Shown: positions 11,820 to 21,857, counted from the first letter of the stretch. The stretch is 64,000 bases of DNA from Sulfurospirillaceae bacterium (GCA_033723415.1 JAWVXD010000005.1:64001-128000); one strand, 5' to 3'. The notes: generated from the letters alone by a model not told the origin. Made by a program: numbers and translations.

Positions 11820-12116
11820 ATGAAAACTCTCATTTTTTTATTTTTTATTTTTACAAGTACTTCACTTTTTTCATATGATGGCGCTGTTATTTTTAACAAA
11901 TGTGCAAAATGTCATGGCATAGACGGGAAACATAAAGCTTTCGGTAAATCTGCAAAGATAGCCGGTGCACCGGCAAAACAAACTATTGCAGTATTAGAAA
12001 TATTTAAAAATATGTCTAGAGTAGATAAATTTGCAAAAGTCATGAATAAAGAAGTTTCAAAACTAAACGAAGAGCAGATAAAAGCAGTAGCAGAATATAT
12101 CTCAAAACTAAAATAG
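11820..12116 (+). CDS. Second monoheme cytochrome c (c553-like paralog)
   Basis: SD AAGGAG before ATG 11820, signal peptide, CAKCH, C-terminal IKAVAEYISKL. Confidence 0.88.
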   Translation: MKTLIFLFFIFTSTSLFSYDGAVIFNKCAKCHGIDGKHKAFGKSAKIAGAPAKQTIAVLEIFKNMSRVDKFAKVMNKEVSKLNEEQIKAVAEYISKLK

Positions 12117-12117
12117 T

Positions 12118-12354
12118 CTAATCAGGCGGTCCATATCCTTTTTCTTTTGCCTTTCTTTCTTTTATATTCTTTTTTCTTTCTTCCAACATAACAGCATCCT
12201 GCAAAGATTCCTCATCATCATATAAAGCTCCATCCAGAAATTTATTTTGATCATCAAATTGACCTGTTCTTAAACCCCAAATAAGTGCCCAAAGTCCAAA
12301 AGCTCCAAGCGTTATAGATGCCCCAAGCATCATGGCTATAACCCAACTGTTCAT
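12118..12354 (-). CDS. ccoS: cbb3-type oxidase assembly protein CcoS
   Basis: TM helix followed by WGLRTGQFDD; downstream of ccoI. Confidence 0.93.
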   Translation of the reverse strand: MNSWVIAMMLGASITLGAFGLWALIWGLRTGQFDDQNKFLDGALYDDEESLQDAVMLEERKKNIKERKAKEKGYGPPD

Positions 12355-12468
12355 ATTAACTGTCTCCTTTAACTTGGGACAGGTTCCAAGTTAAATTCCT
12401 CTCACTAAAGCTTCGCCCTTGGCGAGAATTTTTCATTAACTGTCTCCTCCAACATTTAGTATGATCAT
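12355..12468 (-). repeat. Dispersed ~80-bp double-hairpin repeat, copy A, with translationally coupled mini-ORFs at 12436-12468 (MIILNVGGDS) and 12356-12436 (MKNSRQGRSFSERNLTWNLSQVKGDS)
   Basis: Direct repeat ATTAACTGTCTCCT at 12355 and 12435; perfect 10-bp inverted repeat 12368-12377/12386-12395; 61/81 nt identical to 18769-18849. Confidence 0.9.
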
Positions 12469-14885
12469 TATTTTCTTTTTGGTGTCTTAATCATATTGAT
12501 TCTCATAGAATTTCCTACAACTATCAATGAACTAAGTGACATTGATAAAGCTGCAAACAGCGGAATCACATATCCTGCCATAGCAAGTGGTATCGTTATA
12601 GCATTATACAAAAATGATAACAATAAATTTTCTTTAACGATACGAAATGTCCTCTTTGAGATCAAGAATGAGTAATACAGTGACTCAAATGAATTATTTA
12701 TAAGTACGACATCACTTACATTTAGAGCTATATCAGCCCCACTACCCATAGTTATAGCTATCTCACTTTTTGAAAGTGCCAAAGCATCATTGATCCCATC
12801 TCCTACCATGACTACTTTTTTACCGTTCTTTCTAGCCTCTTCTATTATATTAGCTTTCTCTTGAGGCAGTAAAGAAGCATAAAATTTTTCTATTCCTACT
12901 CTATTGCATATTTTTTTTGCCACTTCCTTATTGTCTCCTGTCAGCATAATCACTTCTACACCTAAGTGTTTGATATTTTCTATGCTCCAAGCAGCATCTT
13001 CTCTTGGTATATCTTCTAATGCAAAAACTGCCACTACTTCATTATTGATTGCAAAGTAGTATTGACTAAAATCTTCAAAACTGCTATTACATTTTATACC
13101 ATTTTCAGATAATAAACTCATGCTGCCACCATAAAGTGTAGCTCCTTCATAAGTGGCTTTTATGCCTTTTGCTTCGATATTTTTGATGTTTTGCAAGTCT
13201 TTTATTTTAAATTTTTCTTCCTCAAAATATTCTGCTATCGCTTTACTTATAGGATGAGTAGAATTTTTACTTAGAGAATATAAAAGCGATCTGTCAAAAT
13301 CTTTTAAATATACTTTATCCACAATTTTGGGTTTCCCGGAAGTTATAGTACCGGTCTTATCCAACATCAATACGTCACATTTCGCCATAGTTTCTAGAAA
13401 TGAAGCTTCTTTAAATAGGATACCTGATTTAGCAGCCATCCCAAGACCAACAAGCGTAGAAACTGGAGTTGCCAATCCAAGAGCGCAAGGACATGCTATG
13501 ACTATAACAGAAATTGCAACTATTAAAGAGCGCTCAAAAGGTTCTCCGCCAAAATACCAAAATAGTAAAGTTCCAATAGAGAGTAATAAAATAATAGTAG
13601 AGAAGTAACCAGATACGATATTTGCTAGCTTTTCAATTTGTGGTTTCTTATTCATAGAATCTTCTAATAACGAAGTTATTTTACTCAATACCGAAGAATT
13701 GACATCACATATCGCACGATATCTAAAAACAGTATCTAGCGCGATATATCCACTTAGTATCTTATCTCCTGTCTTCAAAAAAACAGGTGTAGATTCTCCT
13801 GTCAAGCTTGAAGTATCAAATGAAGATTCACCGTCAATAATAACGCCGTCAATAACAATTTTTTCACCGGCCTTTACTTCTAATATATCTCCTGTTTTAA
13901 CTTCTTCTACACCTAACAATATCTTTTCATCGTTTTTTATGACCAATACTTCCGTAGGGACTGAGCTGTTAAAACTGTCCAACCTGTCTACAGCCTTTTT
14001 CTTTGATAAAACTTCTAAATATTTTCCTGCAAATACAAAAGTTATGATCATAGTCACAGAATCAAAATAAACTTCTCCTTTTTGAGAAAACATCGCATAT
14101 AAAGAGTATATATAAGCTGAAGTTGCACCTGTTGCAACTAGAATATCCATATTTACATATTTGTTCTTTATCCCGTAATATGCACCTTTAAAATACACCG
14201 AACCCGTGTAAAAAAGAGTTGGTGTTGCTAGTACGAATTCTGCAAAATTCAAGATGTTTTTTATTTCGAGTTTCATGCCTGTAAAATAACCTGCATATTG
14301 AGCTATTGCGATCCACATGATATTCATAGTAGTGAAAACGCCGACCAATAATCTAGCGTAATAATCACGTCTAGTACTATTTGCCTGAATCTCCTGCATG
14401 CTAGGATCATAAGGGTATGCATTGTAGCCGATGTTCCTGATAGTAAGTATGATTTCTGAGAGTTTTATAGTGTCCGGATCCCAAACGATTTTTGCTTTAT
14501 TGTTTGTTTGATTAATGCTTGCTTCTACTATACCATCTTTTTGATGCAATACTTTTTCGTTAAGCCAGACACAAGCGGAGCAGTGAATTCCTTCTATAAT
14601 GAGATAAATCTCATAAAATCCGTCTTTATTTTTTATATATTTTTTGTTAAAACCTTCTAGATCAAATTTTTCAACTTCACCAAGATCTTCTTTTGGTGGT
14701 TCAAGTTCAGTATTTCCGACTCTTTTATAAAAATCATCCAAACCTTCACTTTTCAGAAGATGGAAAACTCCTTGACAGCCTTTGCAGCAAAAATATTTTG
14801 TTGAATCTTCAAAACTGCTGTCTTTAATCAATACCTTTTCGTCAAATTCAAGATGACAATGGTCACAGCGTCTTTTTTGCATCAA
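12468..14885 (-). CDS. ccoI: Heavy-metal P1B-type ATPase CcoI/FixI (copper supply for cbb3 oxidase)
   Basis: N-terminal CxHC...FCCxGC domain, HCSAC, TGES, CPC, DKTGT, GDGIND; adjacent to ccoS. Confidence 0.9.
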   Translation of the reverse strand: MMQKRRCDHCHLEFDEKVLIKDSSFEDSTKYFCCKGCQGVFHLLKSEGLDDFYKRVGNTELEPPKEDLGEVEKFDLEGFNKKYIKNKDGFYEIYLIIEGIHCSACVWLNEKVLHQKDGIVEASINQTNNKAKIVWDPDTIKLSEIILTIRNIGYNAYPYDPSMQEIQANSTRRDYYARLLVGVFTTMNIMWIAIAQYAGYFTGMKLEIKNILNFAEFVLATPTLFYTGSVYFKGAYYGIKNKYVNMDILVATGATSAYIYSLYAMFSQKGEVYFDSVTMIITFVFAGKYLEVLSKKKAVDRLDSFNSSVPTEVLVIKNDEKILLGVEEVKTGDILEVKAGEKIVIDGVIIDGESSFDTSSLTGESTPVFLKTGDKILSGYIALDTVFRYRAICDVNSSVLSKITSLLEDSMNKKPQIEKLANIVSGYFSTIILLLSIGTLLFWYFGGEPFERSLIVAISVIVIACPCALGLATPVSTLVGLGMAAKSGILFKEASFLETMAKCDVLMLDKTGTITSGKPKIVDKVYLKDFDRSLLYSLSKNSTHPISKAIAEYFEEEKFKIKDLQNIKNIEAKGIKATYEGATLYGGSMSLLSENGIKCNSSFEDFSQYYFAINNEVVAVFALEDIPREDAAWSIENIKHLGVEVIMLTGDNKEVAKKICNRVGIEKFYASLLPQEKANIIEEARKNGKKVVMVGDGINDALALSKSEIAITMGSGADIALNVSDVVLINNSFESLYYSFLISKRTFRIVKENLLLSFLYNAITIPLAMAGYVIPLFAALSMSLSSLIVVGNSMRINMIKTPKRK

Positions 14886-14995
14886 ACCTATACCTTATTA
14901 ACAAAAACTATATGCGTAATTATATCGTGACTTTCTAAATTATAACTGACCTTATGGCATCAAAAATTCTACCTACTCTAAACTATTGAAACTTC

Positions 14996-15024
14996 TTGAC
15001 AAAAAACCTACATTATTATAAAAT
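14996..15024 (+). promoter_or_regulatory. Sigma70-type promoter of rho
   Basis: TTGACA (14996-15001), 17-nt spacer, TAAAAT (15019-15024). Confidence 0.75.
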
Positions 15025-15156
15025 TACGGTTACATTAGCAAGAGCACTTCGCTCTTATAAAGTCACTACAAAAAGCAACTATACTTCTCATTTTAGTTCA
15101 ACGGACCAACAGGAGAGGTATGCTTCAAAAAACATTAACTACAAAAAGAAGGCAAA

Positions 15157-16494
15157 ATGAATAATAATTCTTCCTCAGAGAACCAAAAACCAAAAAGCAA
15201 TGGAAATTATCGTAAATCAAGAACACATGTACCTGTTGAAGGTTACAAAATAGAAAACTTAAGAAGTATGGAACTTGATAAACTTGTAGAAATAGCAACT
15301 GAACTCAATGTTGAAAATCCAAATGAACTAAAAAGACAAGATTTAATGTTTGAGATATTGAAATCTCAAGTCAATAAAGGTGGTTTCATCCTATTTACAG
15401 GGATATTAGAGATAACTCACGAAGGATATGGCTTTTTACGAACGACTGACACAAATTTTAGTGACAGTGCAAATGATGCATACGTAAGTGCTACACAAGT
15501 AAAGAAATTCGCATTAAGAAACGGCGATATAGTGACAGGACAAGTAAGACAACCAAAAGATCAAGAAAGATACTATGCTCTTTTAAAGATTGAAGCTATC
15601 AACTATCTTCCTATGCAAGACAGTAGAAAAAGACCTCTTTTTGAGAATCTAACACCTGTTTATCCTACAGAATGCATCAAAATGGAATATGACAAGATGA
15701 AGATCACCGGCAGAGTGTTAGATTTATTTACCCCTATAGGAAAAGGTCAGAGAGGACTTATCGTAGCACCTCCTAGAAGCGGGAAAACAGAGCTTATGAA
15801 AGAGTTGGCAAACGGGATCTCTTTTAATCATCCGGAAATCGAACTCATAGTTCTCTTGGTAGATGAAAGACCGGAAGAAGTTACAGATATGCAAAGAAGC
15901 GTAAATGGAGAAGTATATAGCTCAACTTTTGATATGCCGGCCTCTAATCATGTAAGAGTTGCAAACCTAGTCATAGAAAAAGCAAAAAGAAGAGTTGAGA
16001 TGGGCAAAGACGTAGTAATACTTTTAGACTCAATCACCAGACTCGCTCGTGCATACAATACCGTAACACCTTCAAGCGGGAAAATACTAAGCGGAGGTGT
16101 GGACGCAAATGCCCTACATAAACCAAAAAGATTTTTCGGTGCAGCAAGAAACATAGAATTCGGAGGAAGTTTAACTATCATCTCAACAGCACTTATAGAA
16201 ACAGGCAGCAGAATGGATGAAGTTATTTTTGAAGAGTTTAAAGGAACAGGAAATAGTGAAATCGTGTTGGATAGAAATATTTCTGATCGAAGAATTTATC
16301 CAGCTATAAATATAATGAAATCTGCAACAAGAAAAGAAGAGTTGCTAGTTAATCCTGAAACATTACAAAAGATATGGGCTATAAGATCGGCTATCTCTCA
16401 AATGGAAGATATAGAAGCTCTCAAATTTTTATACTCTAAAATGTTGAAAACAGATAATAATGCAGAATTGCTTTCAACCATAAACGAAAGTTAG
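15157..16494 (+). CDS. rho: Transcription termination factor Rho
   Basis: [29 protein letters not shown] and EEFKGTGN motifs. Confidence 0.98.
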
Positions 16495-16560
16495 AAAAAA
16501 TAATTTTTTTATAATTTGTTTTAAGATATACTGTATATTATTACTAAAAGAGGTTGAAAA

Positions 16561-18201
16561 TTGTCACAAGTACTTGCATTAAAATATCGTCCTAAATCAT
16601 TTGAGCAACTTATTGGTCAAAACTCTGTCACGCAAACTCTATCTCTTGCTCTAAATCAAGACAGGTTATCTCATGCTTATCTTTTTTCGGGGCTACGAGG
16701 GAGCGGTAAAACTTCAACTGCAAGAATTTTTTCAAAAGCTCTTATTTGTGAAAAAGGGCCAAATTCAACACCATGTGATGTATGTGAAAATTGTCAGATG
16801 GCAAATGAAAACAGACACATCGACATAGTAGAAATGGATGCTGCAAGTAGCAGAAAGATTGATGATATCAGAGAACTGATTGAGCATACTAAATACAAAC
16901 CCAATATAGCAAGATATAAAATATTTATAATAGATGAAGTTCATATGCTCACAAAAGAGGCTTTTAATGCCCTTTTAAAGACTTTGGAAGAGCCTCCTTC
17001 TTATATTAAATTTATATTAGCTACGACAGATCCTATGAAACTTCCACCAACTATACTATCAAGAACTCAACATTTTAGATTTAAGCAAATTGGCGAAAAA
17101 GATGTTGTAAATCACTTATCACATCTGCTAAATTTAGAAAATATAAGTTATGAAATAGAGGCTTTGCATATGTTAAGCCGTGCAGGAAATGGCTCGCTAA
17201 GAGATACACTGACCTTGCTAGATCAAGCTATTATTTTTTCTAAATCTGATATAACTGCACCTAGTCTGGCTTCTATGCTAGGTCTTCTAGACCCTAAGCA
17301 ATTAGAATACATATTTGATGCTATTTTGTCTAAAGATAAAGACAAGATTCTATCAATTTTAAGAGAGTTAGAAAACTATGAGTGTGAAGTTGTCTTAGAT
17401 GAGCTTATAGCATATCTTAAAACAGCATTTTTTGAGCAAGACAGTAGATTTTCTATCTTGCTGAGTGAAAGATTTTTTAGAATTTTAAGTGAAGCAAAAA
17501 ACTTGCTGTATATAAATGCCGACAATATTTTTATACTCTCTTTAGTATTTTTCAAGATGATAGAAGCAACAAATATAAAAACTATAGATGATATGATAGA
17601 AGAGTTAGAAAATGAAAAATTTAGACATCCTATGCAAAAAGAAGAATCGACCATAACATCAGATATTCCCGTTGCCGCTACACCAAAAGAAGAAAAATCT
17701 GATATAACGCCTCAAAATCATTTTGCCAGACTGATAACTTTATTGAAAGATCGAAATCTAGATACAGGAAACTGTTTTGAAAGATATATAACATTTATCA
17801 GTTTTGAAGATGAGACTCTGACTTTAAGCTCTAATGCAAGCGAAGATTGCAAAAAAATGCTAAGACATGCGACTAGCATCATAAAGCACTTTGTTCAAAA
17901 TGTTTATGGTATAAATACTACCATCAAAATGGTACAAGGAACTCCAAAAGAAGATCTGTCTGAAGAGCAGCATGAACCTCAAGAACAATTTGAAAGTTCA
18001 CAAGAACAGACTCTGCCTCCAAAGGAAGATGAGAATAACACACTCAACAATCAAGAAGATAATTCAGGAAGCTGTGTTGCAGGTCATGTCATGAGCGGAA
18101 AAGAAGAGATAGATGCAAAAGAAATTTTGAATAATCCCTTTATAAAAAAAGCAACCGAACTGTTTGATCCTAAGAAAATAGAGATCCATCCAAAGATCTA
18201 G
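16561..18201 (+). CDS. dnaX: DNA polymerase III subunit gamma/tau
   Basis: LALKYRP, GLRGSGKT, Zn-binding Cys cluster, DEVHML and SRTQ motifs. Confidence 0.96.
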   Translation: MSQVLALKYRPKSFEQLIGQNSVTQTLSLALNQDRLSHAYLFSGLRGSGKTSTARIFSKALICEKGPNSTPCDVCENCQMANENRHIDIVEMDAASSRKIDDIRELIEHTKYKPNIARYKIFIIDEVHMLTKEAFNALLKTLEEPPSYIKFILATTDPMKLPPTILSRTQHFRFKQIGEKDVVNHLSHLLNLENISYEIEALHMLSRAGNGSLRDTLTLLDQAIIFSKSDITAPSLASMLGLLDPKQLEYIFDAILSKDKDKILSILRELENYECEVVLDELIAYLKTAFFEQDSRFSILLSERFFRILSEAKNLLYINADNIFILSLVFFKMIEATNIKTIDDMIEELENEKFRHPMQKEESTITSDIPVAATPKEEKSDITPQNHFARLITLLKDRNLDTGNCFERYITFISFEDETLTLSSNASEDCKKMLRHATSIIKHFVQNVYGINTTIKMVQGTPKEDLSEEQHEPQEQFESSQEQTLPPKEDENNTLNNQEDNSGSCVAGHVMSGKEEIDAKEILNNPFIKKATELFDPKKIEIHPKI

Positions 18202-18202
18202 A

Positions 18203-18769
18203 TCATACTTTTACTCTTAAATCCATAGCTTTTGACAAAGATAAGATATCTACATTTTCAAGATGAACGCCCGTAGGAACACCTTGTGCAATTTTCGTAA
18301 AAGATAAAGACATATCTTTAAGATTATCTTCTATATGCATAATCACAACATCATTCGAAAGTGATGGTGTCAATGCAAATATAATTTCTTTAACTCCATC
18401 TTTAGCTATAGTTTTTAGATGATCTATACTATCCGGTTCTACATTTTCTAATACAAAATATTTTCCGTCATATAAGTTATACTCTTCTAATACCAATATA
18501 TCTTTTGCATTTTCTACTATGCAAATCTTTGTATTGTCACGTTTTTCATCCAGACATATCTCACATATCTCGTTTTCACTTAATGCCCCGCAATTTTGAC
18601 ATTTTTTGATTGATTTGACAGCAATTTCTATTGAATTTGCAAGCTTCATAGCCAAGAAAGTATCATTTAATACTAAGTGATACGCATATCTCATAGCCGA
18701 CTTTTTGCCAACAGTCGGTATAGATTGAAATGCTTCTACTAGATTATTGAATTTTTCTAATTGTTTCAT
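18203..18769 (-). CDS. recR: Recombination mediator RecR
   Basis: PTVGKKSA HhH, C4 zinc finger, ICIVE and AQGVPTG motifs. Confidence 0.95.
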   Translation of the reverse strand: MKQLEKFNNLVEAFQSIPTVGKKSAMRYAYHLVLNDTFLAMKLANSIEIAVKSIKKCQNCGALSENEICEICLDEKRDNTKICIVENAKDILVLEEYNLYDGKYFVLENVEPDSIDHLKTIAKDGVKEIIFALTPSLSNDVVIMHIEDNLKDMSLSFTKIAQGVPTGVHLENVDILSLSKAMDLRVKV

Positions 18770-18983
18770 TAACTGTCTCCTTTAGTTTGGAACTCGTCCC
18801 GAACTAAATTCCTCGCACTAAAGCTAGCGCTTTGCGCAGAGTGTTTCATTGTCTGTCTCCTTTAACTTGGAACTCGTCCAAAGCTAAATTTCTCGTACTA
18901 AAGCACAAAACAGAAGTTTCTGTATCGCTATTTTCTATAATTTGAAAAAGCGCAGGAGTTGAATTTTTGTCTATTTTTTTCAT
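18769..18983 (-). repeat. Tandem copies B2 (18769-18849; MKHSAQSASFSARNLVRDEFQTKGDS) and B1 (18846-18983; 45 codons, 3' part homologous) of the double-hairpin repeat
   Basis: 80-bp period (CTGTCTCCTTTA at 18773 and 18853); homologous to 12356-12436; mini-ORFs overlap their neighbours via ATGA/TAATG. Confidence 0.9.
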
Positions 18984-20212
18984 GTAAGTATCTTAAATTG
19001 GTGTATTTTTATTTCTTCAGAGTAACTGTACTCTAGAGAAAAATCATGTAATTCTACTATATTTTTAACAATATAAAGACCCAAACCTAAGCCTTTGTCC
19101 ATATTACCGGAAACAAATGGCTTGAAGTATTCTTCTATGGCTAGAGAAAGTTTTTCTCCTCTATTTTCAAAAATTATGGCATTTTTTTCGCTTCTTACCT
19201 TTACTTGGTGATCAGGACTGTGCTTTATAGCATTATCCATCAAATTTTTCATAGCCAAAGCAAGTAGTTCAAAATCTGCCCACAGTATCATTTCATCCTG
19301 AACATCTACTATAACATGTTCATCTCTTTTTTCATTTTCCAACATCAACAGATCAATTCCATGTTCTAGAATATAAACAAGATTATATCTTTGAAAATTT
19401 GGAGTGTAGCTTTTGGACACAAGCTGTTCAATTTTGGCAAATTCGCTTATAAGAATGTCTAGTCTCTCAAATATCTTGATCAATCTGTTTTTAGATTTTT
19501 CATCTTCCAGCATTTCGGAAACGATTCTGCCTTTACCTATGGGTGTCTTTAACTCATGCATAATAGTTCTCAAAAAAAGTTGCCTTGAAGCCATCAGGGC
19601 AGATATTTTCTTCACAGCTCGATCAAATTCATTTGCAACCTCAGCTATCTCGTCATCTTGATCACTTTTACAATCAACACTCATATTTCCACTTGCAAAC
19701 TCCCGTATTTTCAAACTTAGTTCTTTAAGCGGTGAGATACTTCGCAAGATTGAAGCATACATCAATATAAAGATAATCAAGGCAATCGCAAAACCAATCC
19801 AAAGCTGCTTATCACTACTTTTTATATTACTAGTGCTTTCTAGCAATATATTAGTCATGATATTTTCGATAAAAAGATAGTATTTGTCGTTGTATTCTAT
19901 AGATGTAAATCTATTTAGATTTATGGATTTTCTGTAAATTATAGTTCCTTGATCTAAAACTGCTTGCTTTAGATTGGGATTATCAACCTTTTTGAGATCA
20001 AAAGTATGAAAATACTCTTCTATATTTCGTGGAGTATAGTTATTGCGATAGAGAGTAAAAAGATAATTTATAGATTGAAATTGTCTTTGTTTCATACGTT
20101 CAGTGTTGATTTCTTCTTGATATTTCAGCAAAAGGATAAAAAACATACCAAGGAGAACAAGAGAAAAAACAAAAATGATGGTAATTTTGGTGCTTAGTGA
20201 TTGTTCTTTCAT
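18980..20212 (-). CDS. racS: Sensor histidine kinase (RacS/ArsS family, HAMP domain)
   Basis: Two TM segments, HAMP, MHELKTP H-box, NLMDNA and GLGLGL motifs; dnaJ-RR-HK-recR order matches C. jejuni racRS. Confidence 0.8.
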   Translation of the reverse strand: MKEQSLSTKITIIFVFSLVLLGMFFILLLKYQEEINTERMKQRQFQSINYLFTLYRNNYTPRNIEEYFHTFDLKKVDNPNLKQAVLDQGTIIYRKSINLNRFTSIEYNDKYYLFIENIMTNILLESTSNIKSSDKQLWIGFAIALIIFILMYASILRSISPLKELSLKIREFASGNMSVDCKSDQDDEIAEVANEFDRAVKKISALMASRQLFLRTIMHELKTPIGKGRIVSEMLEDEKSKNRLIKIFERLDILISEFAKIEQLVSKSYTPNFQRYNLVYILEHGIDLLMLENEKRDEHVIVDVQDEMILWADFELLALAMKNLMDNAIKHSPDHQVKVRSEKNAIIFENRGEKLSLAIEEYFKPFVSGNMDKGLGLGLYIVKNIVELHDFSLEYSYSEEIKIHQFKILT

Positions 20213-21308: not shown

Positions 21309-21857
21309 TTATTTTGTTAGATTACTCTTTAATTCAGATATCTGCTCTTTTGTTAGGATTTTAAAAGCCTTTTCCATATAATCTGCTTTGATCTTTAACA
21401 TATGTTTATGCATATTGTCGGCATACTTTTCAAAAGCTTGTTTATCAAAACCTTTATCGCTTATAAATGCCGCCATCTTGCCTTGGCGATTGTATCCCAT
21501 CATTTTTTTCATATTTAGTCTCATCTCATCTCGGAGAATTGAAAGTTTGTATCTTTGTTCATTATTTAAATTCAATCCTGCGAACATACGCATACCTCTG
21601 GCATTGTGCATTCCCATCATCGGACTATTACCACGCATCATGCCTCTCATCTGCATATTTGGACAATTCATCATACCCTGACCTTGCATCATCATGCCTC
21701 TTGATTGCATACCTTGTCCCTGCATCATGCCTCTCATTGGCATATTTGGACAATTCATCATGCCAGGCCCGTAAGCAGGGGTATTCATAGTGCCTGCATA
21801 TAAGCTAGCGGACATAGCGCCGGCTATAGCCATTGTGATCATAAACTTCATCTTCAT
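21309..21857 (-). CDS. Periplasmic Spy/CpxP (LTxxQ) family protein with Met-rich repeats
   Basis: Signal peptide; LNLNNEQ and LTKEQ motifs. Confidence 0.8.
   Translation of the reverse strand: MKMKFMITMAIAGAMSASLYAGTMNTPAYGPGMMNCPNMPMRGMMQGQGMQSRGMMMQGQGMMNCPNMQMRGMMRGNSPMMGMHNARGMRMFAGLNLNNEQRYKLSILRDEMRLNMKKMMGYNRQGKMAAFISDKGFDKQAFEKYADNMHKHMLKIKADYMEKAFKILTKEQISELKSNLTK

Follow-up and report, generated by a model that had tools for sequence, protein, structure and literature searches.

A family of two-hairpin repeats between operon genes of Campylobacterota with a conserved core and a built-in Shine-Dalgarno sequence

What are the two similar 81-nt sequences that stand between genes in a 64,000-nt stretch of a Sulfurospirillaceae genome (GCA_033723415.1 JAWVXD010000005.1:64001-128000, hereafter the window), and what has kept them alike? 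Unit A (12356-12436) precedes ccoS and unit B (18769-18849) precedes recR; both are read on the minus strand, which is also the strand of the flanking genes. Their alignment comprises 81 gap-free columns, 61 of them invariant and 20 different. The differences touch 11 codons of the minus-strand frame, all 11 non-synonymously and none by a synonymous change only, and are distributed 9/7/4 over the codon positions; an earlier note on the window had counted the same 20 differences without indels and the same 11 amino-acid-changing codons. By sequence comparison the resemblance is far above chance: nhmmer gave an E value of ~1e-17 for each unit, and a 16-mer common to both occurred five times with up to three mismatches compared with 1.24 times expected, a count reached in none of 100 shuffles. 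We consider it probable that A and B are members of a family of mobile intercistronic cassettes, similar to the interspersed repetitive units of mycobacteria (MIRUs), which present an open ribosome-binding site (RBS).

Iterated nhmmer searches identified 34 units in this genome (2.43 Mb, 17 contigs), and a covariance model (CM) built from 25 of them found 35. The units are 74-81 nt long and are composed, from 5′ to 3′, of an optional ATG(A)AA, a conserved TCT, hairpin 1 (4-5 bp, loop CAAAG), the conserved 20-nt core AGCTTTAGTGAGAGGAATTT, hairpin 2 (8-11 bp, tip mostly GCTTTGC) and the Shine-Dalgarno (SD) sequence AAAGGAGA, placed 7-9 nt before the ATG of the next gene. In unit A, hairpin 1 (TCGCC-AAG-GGCGA) is located at 12413-12425, the core AGCTTTAGTGAGAGGAATTT, which stays unpaired in the structure supported by covariation and includes an SD-like GAGG, at 12393-12412, hairpin 2 (TTTAACTTGG-AACCTGTC-CCAAGTTAAA) at 12368-12395 and AAAGGAGA at 12363-12370, 8-9 nt before the ccoS start, all on the minus strand. 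The corresponding parts of unit B, again on the minus strand, are hairpin 1 (GCGC-AAA-GCGC) at 18826-18838, the core AGCTTTAGTGCGAGGAATTT at 18806-18825, hairpin 2 (TTTAGTTCGG-GACGAGTT-CCAAACTAAA) at 18781-18808 and AAAGGAGA at 18776-18783, before the recR start at 18769. In two further units of this genome (C5:215058-215194 and C3:327650-327740) the core carries an insertion of approximately 24-43 nt after AGCTTT/AACTTT, which in both cases starts with CYCACAGAGAGTG. One weak and atypical CM match (C2:313653-313746) has a long hairpin 2 and no SD and seemingly adjoins the 3′ end of a convergent tRNA gene.

The family spans the Campylobacterota and is most abundant in the genus to which the window belongs. 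All 14 genomes of this genus contain CM matches, 16-77 each, these counts being lower bounds as 150 candidates were scored per genome. With stricter filters, 10 of 151 genomes of the phylum had a match, including all four other genomes of the same family, three of six in another family and one genome in each of two further families; the two largest families of this sample gave no match under these filters (0/53 and 0/60 genomes). A scan of public assemblies for the exact core pattern yielded at least 121 stretches, the matches listed carrying the assembly labels Sulfurospirillum, Sulfurimonas, Sulfurovum, Arcobacter, Hydrogenimonas, Helicobacteraceae and others. Three of these loci (L051, L054, L060) belong to a cultivable carrier, Sulfurospirillum arcachonense DSM 9755. 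Of the first 100 core loci, 99 yielded full units (105 in total), and so did 20 of the other 22 (20 units). Two core-pattern loci, one from a cyanobacterial metagenome-assembled genome (L017) and L120, contain the core only and were not accepted as family members. The external units were chosen by their core, so that its invariance among them is partly circular and uninformative; their stems were not selected.

Rfam returned no match at gathering score for the whole window, and a search of 12000-19500 at E values up to 10 gave seven chance-level matches, none of which overlapped unit A or the region of unit B and its tandem neighbour unit C (18769-18926). A literature search by core sequence and by repeat topics, with subscription journals outside its coverage, found no description of the family. 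The phylum, the covarying fold of two hairpins, the conserved core and the RBS within the unit are new, while the kind, an operon-internal repeat with coupled small open reading frames (ORFs), is already represented by the MIRUs.

Both hairpins covary strongly. For the 25 aligned units of this genome, 85.9% of the cells at paired positions can pair, compared with 68.1% in shuffled alignments, and 69 cells carry double changes compared with 24.1 ± 3.9 after shuffling (0 of 500 shuffles reached 69) and 10-17 in slid controls. RNAalifold predicted the same two helices. In the 105 external units, whose alignment was fitted to the CM, 93.7% of the cells pair, and 391 double-change cells contrast with 128.1 ± 8.3 in shuffles and 37-146 in slid controls. 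Covariation in a multi-copy alignment had been named by the earlier note as one test of its proposal that base-pairing rather than peptide sequence is selected. The two compensated pairs that it described in hairpin 2 of A and B were recovered (AAC/GTT versus AGT/ACT). In hairpin 1, where it had noticed one T-A to G-C swap, the 25-copy alignment revealed more, namely three C-G/G-C flips in the covarying columns 22-24/30-32 and one lost T-A pair in columns 21/33. Wobble pairs indicate which strand is under constraint: G·U and U·G together occur 79 times versus 18 for A·C and C·A, and hence it is the sense strand that folds, either as RNA or as sense-strand DNA. Compared with their own shuffles, the 81-nt units A and B fold with z scores of −2.42 and −2.12, whereas longer windows around them fold no better than shuffles (z −0.4 to −1.6).

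Some further pairings were considered. For A and B, folding predicts an extended hairpin in which the 5′ arm of hairpin 1 pairs with GUG of the core and the loop AAAG with CUUU. It was not adopted: across the family the conserved outer parts pair, but the variable middle does so in only 24-48% of cells and without compensation. A pairing between the conserved TCT 5′ of hairpin 1 and core AGA is feasible (columns 18-21/44-47, 68-92% of cells paired), and the somewhat longer UUCU/AGAG pairing of the conserved TTCT with core AGAG is possible but shows no compensation. CAAAG, the consensus loop of hairpin 1, and the hairpin-2 loop CTTTG are reverse complements of each other. A kissing interaction of CAAAG with CUUUG was nevertheless rejected, as loop variants do not compensate; the lone hint in its favour is that both units with a CTTGG tip have a CAAGG loop (2/10 versus 2/96). 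A resemblance of the copy A stem ATTTAAC...GTTAAAG to the inverse core and core sites of integron attC was rejected as well, since most copies, judged by eye, have other stems.

The loops are polar and conserved (CAAAG in 34/96, CTTTG in 44/96), and so are the hairpin-2 tips (loop TTT in 54/110). Four of the 110 tips fit the family better as their reverse complement, and the tip of the unit at locus L087 is the exact reverse complement of another unit's tip, so tip flips do seem to occur. The earlier suggestion that the hairpin-2 loop is inverted between A and B is literally true for six of eight letters, yet weak; copy A is the fourth of the four tips, with a small margin, as its best score is 4 in either direction and only the mean of the top ten favours the reverse (+1.5). 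For copy A, an inversion is a plausible reading.

Both units in the window can be read as small ORFs, which raises the question of whether the family encodes functional peptides of 26 residues. The 26-codon ORF of unit A runs from the ATG at 12436-12434 to the TAA at 12358-12356, is preceded by an SD of its own and ends 1 nt ahead of the ccoS ATG (12354). That of unit B starts at an ATG overlapping the preceding stop (ATGA) and ends with a TAA overlapping the recR ATG (TAATG). A 45-codon ORF (18846-18983, minus strand) runs through unit C, its ATG overlapping the stop of a sensor kinase gene (ATGA) and its TGA the ATG of unit B (ATGA), so that the whole chain reads kinase-ATGA-ORF45-ATGA-ORF26-TAATG-recR. 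Where the ccoI-ccoS junction is filled in three congeners, the frames, read by eye, likewise run from one ATGA to the next or reach a stop 1 nt ahead of the following ATG. A peptide family would be in keeping with these ORFs, which have an own or shared SD and an in-frame stop at the start of the next gene, and with the translation of the core as S-F-S-E-R-N-L in all ORF-bearing copies. The substitutions speak a different language: besides the fact that all 11 codons that differ between A and B do so non-synonymously, conservation of the core extends to each of the three codon positions, and no coding signature and no third-position excess was found in the 13 ATG-bearing copies of this genome (column entropies 0.82/0.92/0.86 by codon position). 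Moreover, 90 of 100 external copies have no ATG and 43 of 100 contain in-frame stops. A functional peptide family is therefore hardly credible. Covariation together with the lack of a third-position excess provides good support for selection on base-pairing and not on the peptide, as had been claimed for A and B.

The same note had proposed that translatability is selected as well, and this holds in part. An ATG at the 5′ end is present in 13 of the 25 aligned copies of this genome and in only 10 of 100 core-selected external copies, among which frame 0 is open in 57/100 and frame +1 in 50/100. Units with an ATG keep frame 0 open more frequently (15/17) than the others (55/102; Fisher p 0.0077), a count that drops 20 units without a recognizable core (12 from this genome, eight external). 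The excess fits selection for an open frame where a start codon exists; differences in subfamily or age could also produce it. Annotators should regard the 26-45-codon ORFs here as by-products of a repeat.

The placement of the units is uniform. All 34 units of this genome are in sense orientation to a gene. An ORF of at least 40 amino acids begins 4-33 nt after 29 of them, the other five being the upstream members of tandem pairs, and a co-directional ORF ends at most 150 nt upstream in 29 of 34 cases. At the external loci, a co-directional ORF ends at most 120 nt upstream in 78 of 94 evaluable cases (median 18 nt). The genes downstream encode unrelated housekeeping functions (FixS, RecR, SecY, IF-1, L11, ClpX, ParB, ATP synthase alpha and others; also DNA polymerase III alpha, urease alpha and ArgB/G/F), and by this measure the units form no regulon. 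In the window, unit A serves ccoS/fixS (Pfam FixS, 12118-12354) and follows a ccoI/fixI-like P-type ATPase gene (E1-E2_ATPase, HMA; 12468-14885). Unit B serves recR (RecR_HhH, RecR_ZnF; 18203-18769), and units C and B follow a sensor histidine kinase gene (HATPase_c, 18980-20212); all four genes lie on the minus strand. Between the stop of ccoI and unit A, the spacer (12437-12467, minus strand) carries GGAGGAGACAGTTA, a second SD before the ATG of the unit, and GGAGACAGTTAAT of this spacer recurs at the 3′ end of unit A. Unit C (18850-18926, minus strand) is a tandem variant 80 nt upstream of unit B, with hairpin 1 ACAGAAAC/GTTTTGT and the core GCTTTAGTACGAGAAATTT, whereas hairpin 2 and the SD are intact. 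It represents a second subfamily, and a ATACAGAAG...CTTCGTGCTTYAGTCGCGAGGAATTT unit of the same subfamily fills the ccoI-ccoS site in two congeners (L187, L192).

Comparison of the two window sites among congeners showed that units come and go. The ccoI-ccoS junction is empty in eight of 11 congeners (overlap or 1-nt gap; six of these are ATGA overlaps with the SD within the end of ccoI) and filled in three, by one 76-nt unit, by one 79-nt unit and by two near-identical units totalling 161 nt. Thus, this site holds zero, one or two units among 12 genomes. At the kinase-recR junction, no unit is present in 10 of 11 congeners (genes overlapping or at most 26 nt apart), and one congener has two units there (157 nt). 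Tandem amplification is also evident elsewhere. Six loci of this genome are doubles, and two arrays of four were found in a complete congener genome (C1:526759-527073, L175, and C1:602328-602649, L173), one with 74-nt units between rplA and rplJ and one with 76-77-nt units at argF-DUF2603, where this genome has two. In the argF-DUF2603 array, three units have the core variant GCACGAGTTCGAGG. Empty junctions in most congeners and tandem amplification together indicate that the family undergoes gain and loss. A gene-specific leader or riboswitch would precede orthologous genes, and this was not observed among the 66 external units whose downstream gene has an ortholog here: they are spread over 56 genes and only seven coincide with a unit of this genome, in line with the empty junctions in 8/11 and 10/11 congeners.

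How could operons tolerate such insertions? Each unit would act as a self-contained translation-start cassette, and for this reason insertions within operons would be tolerated. Hairpin 2 would tie up the sequence just upstream, so that the SD and the start codon remain single-stranded. If a unit sits on an overlapping ATGA junction, or brings an ATG at its 5′ end, a 26-27-codon ORF would be translated through it, and since this ORF stops on or a few bases from the next start (ATGA, TAATG), translational coupling of the operon would be kept, the peptide itself being without function. Folding predictions agree with this picture. The SD of 21 unit-bearing genes has a median predicted unpaired probability of 0.72 compared with 0.42 for 300 further genes whose upstream region has an SD-like motif at 5-16 nt (p 0.0 at four decimals), and the start codon one of 0.64 compared with 0.44 (p 0.008). 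In silico, this supports the idea that hairpin 2 insulates the RBS. The 3′ end of the 16S rRNA was not found in this assembly with two universal motifs; the rRNA operon is probably unassembled despite a stated completeness of 100%.

Several likenesses to MIRUs favour this explanation. MIRUs are 40-100-bp units between operon genes in the orientation of these genes, they are often in tandem with variable copy number, as is the case here in the window, at argF-DUF2603 and at ccoI-ccoS, and according to a review their insertions lie at start codons, where an ORF is coupled with −4 spacing (PMC12548453). Their small ORFs overlap the flanking start and stop codons so that coupling is kept (PMC12548453); among the units described here this is seen in part of the family, namely at both window loci and at the filled ccoI-ccoS sites of three congeners. 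To judge by a title cited there, the first MIRU locus also shares with the kinase-recR site of the window a position behind a two-component sensor kinase gene (Supply et al. 1997, via PMC12548453). The two families differ in phylum and base composition, and the units described here have two covarying hairpins, a 20-nt core that persists across families and an integral SD, with an ORF in only a minority of units outside the genus. The proposed likeness is one of functional class, and we do not file the units as MIRUs.

A comparable arrangement has been engineered. In the synthetic bicistronic design, as described in the same source, the SD of the gene lies inside a short leader ORF that has an SD of its own and ends on the gene's start codon, and ribosomes arriving by coupling clear repressive structure (PMC12548453). 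The units, in contrast, are natural, repeated and mobile, and many have no leader ORF and rely on the hairpin-flanked SD.

Some findings weigh against this explanation. A passive cassette does not explain the strong conservation of the 20-nt core across families. The accessibility gain is a folding prediction, and the control start codons were called crudely. The ORF is absent from most units outside the genus, so coupling cannot be the defining function of the family. In the rplA-rplJ array of the complete congener, the SD of the units is degenerate and a start codon is missing. At the secY junction, very different units are present in two genomes whose flanks are nearly identical, which fits replacement or conversion rather than simple insertion. 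Finally, neither a regular target duplication nor an insertion mechanism was found in the flanks of 104 units. Flanking direct repeats of at least 13 nt occur at eight of the 104 units compared with 0.8% of mismatched controls; most of them extend into a hairpin-2 arm and are hence left over from tandem partners. No fixed target word emerged, since at their ends the units pass into the SD-spacer-ATG of the target; at one filled site, a perfect 19-nt copy of SD-spacer-ATGA stands on either side.

Conservation of the core directs attention to an alternative in which the units are a dispersed post-transcriptional control module and mobility is secondary. Core and loops would then be the target of a single RNA-binding protein or small RNA, such as a CsrA-type GGA binder that spans hairpin 2 from the core's GAGAGGAA to AAAGGAGA of the SD, or the core would stabilize the transcript against 5′-to-3′ decay, and dozens of operon-internal genes would be placed under one control. 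Several families of the phylum share the core letter for letter while the stems vary freely, although for the external set, picked by its core, this identity is partly circular. The folding of the sense strand, the polar conserved loops and the potential of the conserved TCT to pair with core AGA would also suit a binding site. On direct reading, two GGA-type motifs flank hairpin 2, but outside GGA the fit to the CsrA consensus is poor. Upstream of a 271-aa ORF (C7:103920-104735), hairpin 2 has hardly changed in a genome in which the downstream protein shares only 70% identity; set beside the divergent secY units, this shows that turnover is uneven. One difficulty is position. It is kept in only seven of 66 comparable cases, most congeners are without a unit at both window sites, and the genes served have no common theme. 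A control module as the primary nature of the units is therefore rather unlikely.

Conservation of the core and of the loops, CAAAG in hairpin 1 and CUUUG in hairpin 2, implies a trans-acting partner, which might be a protein or an RNA on the mRNA or an enzyme on single-stranded sense DNA. A putative RNA-binding factor for the core would be one candidate. A combined form, in which the units are mobile plug-in RBSs and at the same time a putative docking site (core and CAAAG/CUUUG loops) for one such factor, is a speculative extension to which we give little weight. If it were true, dozens of internal genes without relation to each other (secY, infA, recR, parB, atpA, the arg genes and others) would be wired into a common post-transcriptional circuit of Campylobacterota, which would be rewired between species through gain, loss and tandem amplification of units.

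An enzyme acting on DNA is central to the other alternative, already raised in the earlier note, whereby the units are non-autonomous elements mobilized in trans by an HUH/Y1 enzyme (RAYT or IS200/IS605 TnpA) recognizing their hairpins on single-stranded sense DNA and their structure is kept for transposition and not for the mRNA. Each of the 14 genomes of the genus contains Y1_Tnp genes, including a RAYT-like ORF of 219 aa in this one (C1:455-1114), G·T pairs are tolerated on one strand only, and sites are polymorphic for presence and absence of units. Enzymes of this class are expected to give no fixed target duplication, in agreement with the flanks of the units. Miniature elements derived from IS200/IS605 have subterminal hairpins at both ends, lack a target duplication and insert 3′ of a fixed short target; the units have two hairpins and no regular flanking repeat, and no fixed target word could be assigned to them. 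By strand, 23 units of this genome lie on the G-rich strand and four on the C-rich one, with seven ambiguous (long ORFs 1041:549). This bias decreases to 18:4 when tandem partners are counted once, and a preference for one replication strand was rejected as an explanation because the bias is mild and confounded with gene orientation; even if real, it would not suffice to make all units sense and abut a start codon.

The genomic neighbourhood of the Y1 genes gave no positive support for this proposal. No unit was found within 3 kb of the RAYT-like gene, either with nhmmer at E 100 or with the CM at E 1, and only one of 16 Y1 loci (12 RAYT-like, four IS200-like; approximately 1.5 kb examined on each side) has a unit nearby. 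A complete congener genome with at least 16 units possesses only an IS200-type TnpA. To the left of the RAYT-like gene (C1:122-183) there is a different repeat of approximately 35 nt, with copies at C1:4816, 6762, 83212 and 304328, and this may be the repeat that belongs to the gene. The units share with REP/BIME elements that they are short, structured, hairpin-forming intergenic repeats transcribed in operons, in a genome with Y1 genes. REPs, however, are near-identical within a genome, with conserved stems and a variable single-stranded part; in the units it is the reverse, and stems differ freely among copies of one genome. Furthermore, the units form direct tandem repeats and never inverted pairs (REPINs), flank no RAYT gene here, and are placed strictly in sense (34/34) at start codons with an SD. 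Mobilization by an HUH/Y1 enzyme as the basis of the family is thus distinctly improbable.

Correia elements of Neisseria, ERIC, RUP/BOX and the Rickettsia palindromic elements are, like the units, small structured non-coding repeats that are co-transcribed in or next to genes. They differ in having terminal inverted repeats and target duplications and occurring in both orientations, or in being inserted in frame inside genes, and none of them is known to carry the RBS of the next gene as part of the unit.

Operon-internal repeats that spare operon function are rare and poorly understood. MIRUs serve strain typing worldwide, although their biology is incompletely understood. If the units are intercistronic RBS cassettes, as we favour, they constitute a second, independent system with MIRU behaviour in an unrelated phylum and a natural counterpart of the synthetic bicistronic cassettes. 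Compared with MIRUs, they offer covarying hairpins, a conserved unpaired core and a built-in RBS as additional testable features, by which it can be addressed how the units spread, whether they are neutral passengers or tune the protein ratios of operons, and what recognizes them. The variable tandem copy number is a possible typing marker for Sulfurospirillum-like bacteria. A further repeat is present in the window at 21635-21764, where three direct copies of a 43-nt unit (GCATCATGCCTCTCAT...), unrelated to the family of A and B, follow each other with spacings of 54 and 33 nt.

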